A stretch of 52,169 bases of DNA from contig QMZV01000002.1 in assembly GCA_003663355.1 (NCBI GenBank), forward strand, positions 1 to 52,169, given 5' to 3'. How positions within the stretch are numbered: position 1 is the stretch's first letter; the number at the start of each line of letters is the position of its first letter. Of the stretch, positions 46,484 through 49,169 are shown piece after piece. This DNA is from Candidatus Aenigmatarchaeota archaeon (GTDB taxonomy: Archaea; Aenigmatarchaeota; Aenigmatarchaeia; QMZS01). Under the pieces are notes generated by a model, which had not been told where the DNA came from, did not search any database, and saw nothing but the letters and a program-made list of their open reading frames with translations. The position numbers and the translations under genes were made by a program.

Positions 46484-47107
46484 ATGTTTAAGGTTGTTGT
46501 TTTTGATATGGATGGAACTTTAATAGATTCTATAAGTGTTTGGCTGTCTTTGTTTAAGAAAATTCTTAAAAAATATGGAATTGATGTTGATGAAAGATAT
46601 ATCAAAAATCAGTTTGGTAAACAAGATAAAGAGATTATTTCTTCTGTCACAAAAAAAGAAGAGGTGTTTGATTTTTTTGAGAAAGAGAAAAATAATAAAA
46701 TATTTTTAGATAAGTTCAAAATCTTTCCTTTTGTTAGAGATACTCTTTGCCAAATAAAAAGAAAAGGGATTAAAATTGCTATTGTTACTGGAAATAACAA
46801 AAAGATGCTAAAGTTTCTGTTAAAGAAATTTCATTTAAATGAATTGGTGGATTATTCTGTCTGTGCAGAGGATGTGGATAAAGGAAAACCAAATCCAGAA
46901 ATGCTTTTGAAAGTTTTGGAAGTTTATAGGGTGAATAAAGAAGATGTGATATATGTTGGAGATGCTCCTTATGATGTTGAAATGGCAAAAAATGCTGGAG
47001 TTAAAATTATGGTTGTTTTAACAGGTGTTTTGAACAGAAAATTGGCAGAAAAATTAAAACCTGATTTTATTTTTGAAGATGTAAGAGGGGTTTTAAAATT
47101 ATTGTAA
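46484..47107 (+). CDS. HAD-superfamily hydrolase (phosphatase, subfamily IA-like)
   Basis: Motif I VVFDMDGTLIDS, motif II IVTGN, motif III/IV KGKPNP...YVGDAPYDVEMAKNAG. ATG at 46484 is preferred over the TTG at 46475. Confidence 0.85.
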   Translation: MFKVVVFDMDGTLIDSISVWLSLFKKILKKYGIDVDERYIKNQFGKQDKEIISSVTKKEEVFDFFEKEKNNKIFLDKFKIFPFVRDTLCQIKRKGIKIAIVTGNNKKMLKFLLKKFHLNELVDYSVCAEDVDKGKPNPEMLLKVLEVYRVNKEDVIYVGDAPYDVEMAKNAGVKIMVVLTGVLNRKLAEKLKPDFIFEDVRGVLKLL

Positions 47108-47497
47108 AATTATTTTTACTTCATTTTTGCTTATTTTTTTAAATTCTAAGTTTGTTTTTCCTGGTCCTATTTCTATCTTGTTAAATTTTATTTTTTCAAA
47201 TGTTTTGTTGTAGGTTTTATATTCTGTTGAAAAAGAGATTGAATTATTTGAGAATTTTAGAATTCCTGTTTTAAATTCTATTTGTATTTTTCTTGAGGAA
47301 TTTATTGGTTCTGAGATTAAATCTGAGATTGTGATTGAAAGGAAATTCACAACATTCTTTCCGTGTTCGAATTCCAACTCTGCTTTTTTTTCTTCTATTA
47401 AAGGAAGCCCAAACAGCAAAATCGTCCCAATAATGGATATTGAAAATGCAATTATTAAAACAGATGAGACAACTACATTCATAATATTATTTTGCAA
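47099..47497 (-). CDS. Hypothetical protein with N-terminal hydrophobic helix (archaeal pilin-like class III signal possible)
   Basis: MQNNIMNVVVSSVLIIAFSISIIGTILLFGLPLIEE then a beta-rich region. The pilin-like call is weak. Confidence 0.4.
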   Translation of the reverse strand: MQNNIMNVVVSSVLIIAFSISIIGTILLFGLPLIEEKKAELEFEHGKNVVNFLSITISDLISEPINSSRKIQIEFKTGILKFSNNSISFSTEYKTYNKTFEKIKFNKIEIGPGKTNLEFKKISKNEVKIILQ

Positions 47498-47976
47498 AAT
47501 CCTGCTTCATATAATATCTTTGTAAAATCTGGTTCAAGTTCTGTTTCTTCTCCTTTTTTAAAAGAATAAACTCTCCCTGATGGAGATAAAATCTCTGGTA
47601 TGTCTTTTAAAAAAACAACCTTTACTTTTGTATTTTTTCTTTCTTTTGTTTCTTTATTAATATAATTCTGTTCAAAAGAATGATCATATTTTCTTATAAT
47701 TTTAATCAACTCTAAATATAATTCTTTCTCTAAATCTTCTTAATTTTTAGGAAGGTTGTTTGTTTTGTAAAATAAAAAGGCAAGATTTAAGATTTTCTTT
47801 TTTCTTAATTCAAAAATAGAATAAACAAGGTTTTTTGCGCTTTTTTCTTCTATTGTTCCTTTTTTTAGTTTAATGTAGTTAAATGCATTTTCATAAAAAT
47901 TTGGTGGTAGTTGTTGCAATTTTTCTCCTTTCTCTTTTTGCTTGATTTCCCGAATTTTCTCATATGTTAATATCAT
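47479..47976 (-). pseudogene. GINS subunit (Gins51/COG1711-like) with a single in-frame TAA at 47742-47740
   Basis: The two track ORFs (47740-47976 and 47479-47709) are in the same frame. Joined they read ...LTYEKIREIKQKEKGEKLQQLPPNFYENAFNYI...NNLPKN*EDLEKELYLELIKIIRKY...KVKVVFLKDIPEILSPSGRVYSFKKGEETELEPDFTKILYEAGFCKII. That is a GINS A-domain followed by a B-domain. The start overlaps the orc1/cdc6 stop by 4 nt. Confidence 0.65.
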
Positions 47977-49169
47977 GTTTCAAACATGTTAGAAAAAGTT
48001 GATTTTAAAATGTCAAAAGATTTTTTTGCAATTGCCAACCTGATTTCTCTTGTTCTTCCATATCTTCCTTTTGAAACAACTTTTGTTGAAATCAGTCCAA
48101 GCATATCTAATTCCGAAATTAAATCAGAAATTCTCCTTTGAGTTAGAGTTTTATATCCATTTCTCTTACATAGAGAAAGATAAACTTCATAAACATCTCC
48201 TGTCAGGATTTGGTCTTTGCCTTTTTCAAAAAGTTTTAAAATTGAGTAAAGAGTTAGTTGAGAATGTCTTGGTTGTGTTTTTGCTAATTCCGTAACTCTA
48301 TCTAATTCTAATTTTTGCTCTGCAAGGTCAACGTGTTTTTCTGTAATTTTTTTGTCTTCATTTCTTTCAGCAAGTTCTGCTGCCACTCTTAATAAATCCA
48401 AAGCCCTTCTTGCATCACCCTGTTCTTGAGCAGCTATTGCAGCACATTTTTCTATAACTCCTTCTGAACAAACTCCTGGTTTTAATGCAATTTTTGCTCT
48501 TTGTTGCAAAATATCTTTTAGTTGTAAGGCATTGTAAGGCGGAAAAATAATTTCTTCTTCTGATAAAGAACTTCTCACTCTCGGGTCTAAATCATCTGTA
48601 AAAGAAAGGTCGTTAGAAATCCCTATTATGCTAATTTTCGCATTTTTTAGTTCTGTGTTTATTCTTGTTAAATTGTATATAAGGCCGTCTCCAATTTTTT
48701 TAACTAATGCGTCTAATTCATCCAAAGCAAGCAAAATAATTTGCTCTTTTTCATCTATCAATTCAAATAATTTGTTGTATAATGATTCTGTAGGCAATCC
48801 TGTTTCAGGAACTGGGAAATTTAATTCTCTAAGGATATAAGCCAACATTCTGTACTCTGTATCTGCAGTTTTTTTTAATTTGCAGTTTATATAAACTGGT
48901 TTTAAATTTGTTGTGTTTGTTGATTTAAGTTCGCTAAAAATGTGTTTTATTACAACAGATTTTCCTGTTCCTGTAGTTCCGTATATGAAAAGATTGGATG
49001 GTTGCTCTAATTTTAAGGCAGGGGCTAAAACTTTTGCAATACTCATTATTTGCTCATCTCTATGCAAAATCTTATCTGGAATATAATTATGGGTTAATAA
49101 TTTTTTATCAAGAAAAAAACTTTCTTTGTTTATATAACTAGAAAAAAACTTCTTAAGTTTCTCTTGCAT
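47973..49169 (-). CDS. cdc6: Orc1/Cdc6 replication initiator
   Basis: LHRDEQIMSIAKVLAP, Walker A YGTTGTGKS, Walker B LALDELD, sensor motifs (GISND, GDARRALDLL) and a C-terminal wHTH. Confidence 0.95.
   Translation of the reverse strand: MQEKLKKFFSSYINKESFFLDKKLLTHNYIPDKILHRDEQIMSIAKVLAPALKLEQPSNLFIYGTTGTGKSVVIKHIFSELKSTNTTNLKPVYINCKLKKTADTEYRMLAYILRELNFPVPETGLPTESLYNKLFELIDEKEQIILLALDELDALVKKIGDGLIYNLTRINTELKNAKISIIGISNDLSFTDDLDPRVRSSLSEEEIIFPPYNALQLKDILQQRAKIALKPGVCSEGVIEKCAAIAAQEQGDARRALDLLRVAAELAERNEDKKITEKHVDLAEQKLELDRVTELAKTQPRHSQLTLYSILKLFEKGKDQILTGDVYEVYLSLCKRNGYKTLTQRRISDLISELDMLGLISTKVVSKGRYGRTREIRLAIAKKSFDILKSTFSNMFET

Follow-up and report, generated by a model that had tools for sequence, protein, structure and literature searches.

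An in-frame TAA in the sole GINS gene of an archaeal genome assembly probably reflects a local sequence error

In the archaeal contig analysed here (the window, meaning the whole stretch of 52,169 bp), the genome's only GINS gene is interrupted by a single in-frame TAA, for which a local sequence error is a likelier explanation than a real feature. Were the stop real and the gene functional, this would be an archaeon replicating with a split or read-through GINS, and the case would bear on the degree to which a reduced symbiont can do without parts of its CMG helicase. The evidence points the other way, and the practical value lies in curation. The deposited CDS fragments (78 and 76 aa) are best annotated as a single GINS gene that probably contains a sequence error; the AT-rich spot in GINS is a recurrent assembly breakpoint, where public contigs carry adapter sequence.

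Organization and identity of the GINS locus

ORF listing and translation showed that positions 47976 to 47479 of the minus strand form a single frame of 165 codons, containing a lone internal TAA at codon 79 (47742-47740, minus strand) and a terminal TGA. The 5' ORF (47976-47740, minus strand, 78 aa) begins with ATG and the 3' ORF (47709-47479, minus strand, 76 aa) with TTG. The coordinates in the first-pass annotation, which had described two ORFs in the same frame with only the TAA and the ten sense codons for EDLEKELYLE between them, were borne out. The joined frame spans 165 positions, the length of an intact orthologue. The overlap of 4 nt with the orc1/cdc6 stop was likewise found as described: the orc1/cdc6 TGA (47975-47973) overlaps the GINS ATG (47976-47974) in the sequence ATGA, and a second ATGA joins the GINS TGA to the start codon of the following 127-aa gene. 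No family match was found for the product of this downstream gene. Gins51 proteins form a tetramer and bind MCM and GAN/RecJ-Cdc45, and an MCM gene is present in the same window. The features of the locus are as follows.

47973-49169, minus strand: orc1/cdc6, 398 aa, directly upstream of GINS (Pfam AAA_22, Cdc6_lid and WHD_Cdc6 on an identical product)
47479-47976, minus strand: single-copy GINS gene (Gins51 or AB-type), 165 codons including one internal TAA, stop TGA (Pfam Sld5 match, sole genome locus, AlphaFold2 model, 3anw_A)
47647-47976, minus strand: A domain (helical bundle), residues 1-110 (PF05916 at residues 3-100; DSSP on the model)
47488-47625, minus strand: B domain (small, beta-rich), residues 118-163 (model; Foldseek 5ghr_B/D)
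47748, minus strand: second private difference, GAA>AAA (E77K), 7 nt upstream of the TAA difference in gene sense (contig comparison)
47740-47742, minus strand: in-frame TAA, codon 79; TTA (Leu) in all other assemblies (contig comparison)
47550-47727, no strand: AT-rich stretch, break site of four other public assemblies (contig ends; GC 16-18% at 47600-47749)
47099-47482, minus strand: 127-aa gene downstream of GINS, with a hydrophobic N-terminus (ORF listing)

The joined translation matched the Pfam Sld5/GINS helical-bundle profile PF05916 with 33.7 bits (E 4.3e-8), above the curated gathering cut-off of 22.3 bits. Protein residues 3-100 aligned with profile positions 2-100 of 102, and the alignment ran across the stop. 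The proposal that the joined 165-residue protein is a GINS, for which a profile check had been suggested, is thereby upheld. In a PF05916 search of the whole genome the GINS locus scored 34.6 bits. The NCBIfam model for Gins23 (NF053565, BA-type) gave 36.2 bits against a cut-off of 120, and aligned weakly, solely over the A-domain part (model positions 61-156).

An AlphaFold2 model of the intact conspecific protein (from contig L027), built on an alignment of 21 natural homologues, had a mean pLDDT of 88. According to DSSP, the model contains helices at residues 5-15, 27-37, 42-69 and 81-110 and strands within 118-163, and a short low-confidence linker joins the helical A domain to the beta-rich B domain. 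A Foldseek search against the PDB gave Thermococcus kodakarensis Gins51 (3anw_A, E 8.8e-7) as the top match. Eukaryotic GINS/CMG entries came next: their chains A and D, which we take to be the AB-type subunits Psf1 and Sld5, matched over the full length, whereas chains B and C aligned over the A domain only. The C-terminus of the protein resembles the C-terminal domain of Gins51 (5ghr_B/D, TM 0.71-0.72 on the target), so that the first-pass assignment of Gins51-like A and B domains agrees with the best structural matches. The domain order in the model, A then B, is that of Gins51 and not of Gins23, Gins51 being defined by an AB-type architecture with the helical A domain N-terminal and the beta-rich B domain C-terminal (PMC3114041). 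The locus is a real Gins51-type (AB) GINS gene.

One point of the first-pass annotation needs correction. The N- and C-terminal parts of the joined protein had been likened to the A and B domains, but the stop does not separate these two domains: in the model the TAA site falls within the A domain, where residues 70-80 form a loop that connects helix 42-69 to helix 81-110. Truncation at this site would be predicted to remove A-domain helix 4 and the entire B domain.

The source genome (752 kb, 86% complete, 30% GC) was searched for a further GINS. Profile and family searches of the whole 752 kb, as had been suggested for a GINS paralog, revealed no second copy; the interrupted gene is the sole GINS. 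GINS is a core component of the replicative helicase, and in Thermoplasma it is a Gins51 homotetramer (PMC3114041). Because no second GINS occurs in the genome, the present organism presumably uses a Gins51 homotetramer as well, by analogy with Thermoplasma.

Comparison with other assemblies and related genomes

An identical Orc1/Cdc6 protein is encoded by ten independent metagenome contigs (ENA, JGI). In nine of them an uninterrupted GINS gene of 165 or 168 aa lies directly 3' of orc1/cdc6, and the tenth (L031) stops 13 nt beyond codon 79. Codon 79 is TTA in all ten. The cluster of GINS products at 90% identity, drawn from a collection of about 15 billion protein sequences, gave the same picture: the 12 products encoded on other contigs all have full length, at 165-170 aa, and carry Leu79, and the sole fragments, of 78, 76 and 76 aa, belong to the 52,169-bp contig of the window itself in its NCBI and JGI/IMG deposits.

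Two contigs were close enough to the window for base-by-base comparison. ENA ERZ650341 NODE_54 (85 kb) shows two mismatches in 7,197 bases, and JGI 3300028891 Ga0309840_100909 two in 4,443 bases. The mismatches are the same in both and lie 7 nt apart, at 47741 (TTA>TAA, L79stop, a middle-base change of T>A in gene sense) and at 47748 (GAA>AAA, E77K). By simple arithmetic, if two differences were placed at random in 7.2 kb, a spacing of 7 nt or less would have a probability of about 0.002. A further 21.8 kb compared with the JGI assembly contained three scattered differences, two synonymous and one Ala/Glu, the pattern of real variation filtered by selection, whereas one missense and one nonsense change make up the GINS pair. 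Judged from these alignments, the window genotype is about 99.98% identical to the NODE_54 and JGI assemblies, its only disruptive differences are the clustered pair in GINS, and the TAA is private to the present assembly. A scan of JGI metagenomes with a pattern permitting either allele at both sites returned one contig (L025), which carries the wild-type allele. An exact look-up of the 78-aa fragment found no copy in other assemblies; the same look-up with a 397-aa protein of the window also found none, and is therefore uninformative.

Conspecific strains do differ in this part of the gene. Their differences in GINS fall mostly within a 15-nt loop segment (window 47740-47755: N/K74, L/I/M75, E/K77, N/K78), and codons 74-79 form a true hot spot at which strains vary. 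The interdomain linker also varies, with a 9-nt indel at about 47640-47650 (KERK vs KLEEERK).

The comparison with related genomes that had been proposed was carried out by profile search. A GINS match was found in 35 of 41 genomes, none with an internal stop. The residue aligned with codon 79 is Leu, Ile or Met in the column of 21 homologues. The gene order orc1-GINS-p127 is kept across the genus and family (L005-L015, L017), and among these relatives Orc1 is 72-83% identical, GINS only 34-59%. The interdomain linker ranges from 0 to about 70 residues across the family.

These comparisons bear on an unlikely but substantial alternative, in which the strain or sub-population dominating one sample truly carries a nonsense mutation (TTA>TAA, linked with E77K) that arose very recently and is private to it. 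The gene would then be at the onset of pseudogenisation, or the mutation would be deleterious and hitch-hiking in a symbiont population of small size; no special mechanism would be called for. Both changes sit in a loop that is truly variable among strains, and both are towards A, as AT-biased mutation in a 30% GC genome predicts. AAA at codon 77 recurs independently in a more distant strain (L036), and at least E77K could therefore be real. The three other plausible natural SNVs relative to the JGI assembly indicate a slightly distinct genotype. Against this reading, the gene is the sole GINS and encodes a core helicase part (PMC3114041), so that a null majority is hard to square with a growing population; the stop would, on the model, delete a helix of the A domain together with the B domain; and the allele is absent from every other assembly. 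It would also have to be extremely young, since the flanking 7 kb show zero divergence from NODE_54.

Decoding of the in-frame TAA

If the TAA were the genuine majority allele of this small DPANN-like archaeon, GINS might remain functional through readthrough, or as two pieces split inside the helical bundle (residues 1-78 and a piece re-initiated from the TTG at codon 90). We regard this as highly improbable. It would fit the presence of a sole GINS in an 86%-complete genome, a downstream frame that is perfectly kept, and a TTG 11 codons after the stop. The preserved frame is explained by the extreme youth of the difference, which amounts to at most a few mutations with the flanking 7 kb unchanged. 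A programmed readthrough or conserved split would be expected to recur, but none of the 12 conspecific products and none of the 35 genomes with a GINS match shares the stop or a split. A TTG-started piece would lack residues 79-89, including, in the model, the first nine residues of helix 81-110, and the predicted break lies inside the helical bundle, where there is no domain boundary. No Shine-Dalgarno-like purine run precedes the TTG.

Searches with ARAGORN and Rfam yielded no credible suppressor tRNA with anticodon UUA, which also speaks against readthrough. When introns were allowed, ARAGORN proposed a 'tRNA-Stop(tta)' within GINS itself, at 47696-47829; this intron-mode call was absent in default mode and was rejected as a false positive. 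No tRNA match was listed in an Rfam scan of 47300-48200 at E<=10. A -1 frameshift was also considered and rejected, as the sequence conserved beyond the TAA continues in the zero frame and there is no in-frame slippery heptamer.

Reassignment of TAA to sense, or its ambiguous decoding, has a negligible probability, and nothing beyond the lone in-frame TAA speaks for it. TAA is the commonest terminator in the genome, ending 338 of the 561 ORFs of at least 150 aa (60%), and 25 of 45 in the window, in accord with the first-pass view that reassignment is unlikely. The orthologous codon is TTA in conspecifics, and the intron-mode call described above is the sole tRNA candidate for TAA.

Two side observations were made on the genome. 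With default settings ARAGORN detected no more than 7 tRNA genes, a number that rose to 13 in intron mode, and many tRNAs are presumably missed owing to unusual introns or divergent structure. The 963-aa RtcB (window 39291-42182) contains an intein with a LAGLIDADG domain, as seen by Pfam on the identical product in L034.

Assembly context of the TAA and comparison with known systems

The TAA lies beside a position where assemblies repeatedly fail. GC content is 16-18% across 47600-47749, and the 100 bases at 47650-47749, with 16% GC, are the most AT-rich in the 3 kb profiled; both changes are at their edge. Four other public assemblies of this organism break inside the 3' half of GINS, 13-190 nt from the TAA; near-identical strains are present in ERZ650341, JGI 3300028891, ERZ27227314 and SRR14699971. 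Contigs end at 47727 (JGI Ga0309840_100909) and at 47673 (ENA ERZ27227314 k141_314272), and two others run into Nextera adapter at 47550 (JGI 3300028891 Ga0309840_100199, L039:1-72; Logan SRR14699971_47672, L040:1-19). The adapter at this junction is the Nextera mosaic end, AGATGTGTATAAGAGACAG, before which the JGI contig adds P7 sequence and an index. The adapter junctions mark a coverage gap. The breaks and adapter run-ins, together with the 16% GC, point to a coverage trough beside the TAA, as occurs in tagmentation libraries.

The two adapter-fused contigs, which join at the identical base within the B-domain region of GINS, constitute adapter contamination in public deposits. A repeat-induced chimera was rejected as the cause of the differences, because no other site in the genome contains the variant 16- to 22-mers. 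Genome-wide, there are 192 pairs of same-frame ORFs split by one stop, a number too noisy to gauge the count of broken genes.

We infer that the TAA and E77K are errors and not a real allele, and assign a probability of roughly 0.65 to a local consensus or assembly error at the coverage trough. The true gene would be an intact, essential, single-copy Gins51-type ORF of 165 codons, with TTA (Leu) at codon 79 and probably translationally coupled to orc1/cdc6. The error would have arisen where the assembly passed through a stretch of extreme AT content, strain variation and thin coverage, perhaps bridged by no more than a handful of tagmentation-library reads of low quality or with PCR errors. 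Where very few reads bridge such a trough, clustered read-end or PCR errors could be retained in the consensus. By comparison, it is biologically unlikely that a population would have a null allele as its consensus for a gene that is both the sole copy and a core helicase component. Two further observations count against an error and for a real recent allele. De Bruijn assemblers output only k-mers occurring in reads, so that some reads must have carried both changes. In addition, the window's own genome contains no adapter sequence.

The first-pass annotation had listed four options: a sequencing or assembly error, recent pseudogenisation, a two-piece GINS and stop-codon readthrough. The present analysis favours the first and, failing that, a recent private nonsense allele; the last two find no support, since no other assembly or relative has a stop or a split at this position and the break falls inside the helical bundle.

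Where coverage is low and strains vary, local consensus or assembly errors in metagenome-assembled genomes likewise appear as private, clustered differences beside positions where assemblers break or meet adapter. In the present case the error is deduced from contig comparison. Programmed readthrough and other recoding share with the present case an in-frame stop in an essential gene and an intact downstream frame. They differ from it in that the stop found here is unconserved in relatives and conspecifics, and is accompanied by no detected recoding signal or suppressor tRNA.

Archaeal Gins51 proteins of known structure (3ANW chain A; the Thermoplasma acidophilum homotetramer) likewise consist of an A domain followed by a C-terminal B domain, with a sequence identity to the present protein of only about 20%. 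Archaea with an alpha4 homotetramer have one GINS gene per genome, as is the case here. The disordered linker of TacGINS (PMC3114041) has its parallel in the linker of variable length among the relatives, whereas the linker of the present species is very short. The present gene further differs from known Gins51 genes in lying directly 3' of orc1/cdc6 with a 4-nt overlap, and from every other copy in carrying an internal TAA.
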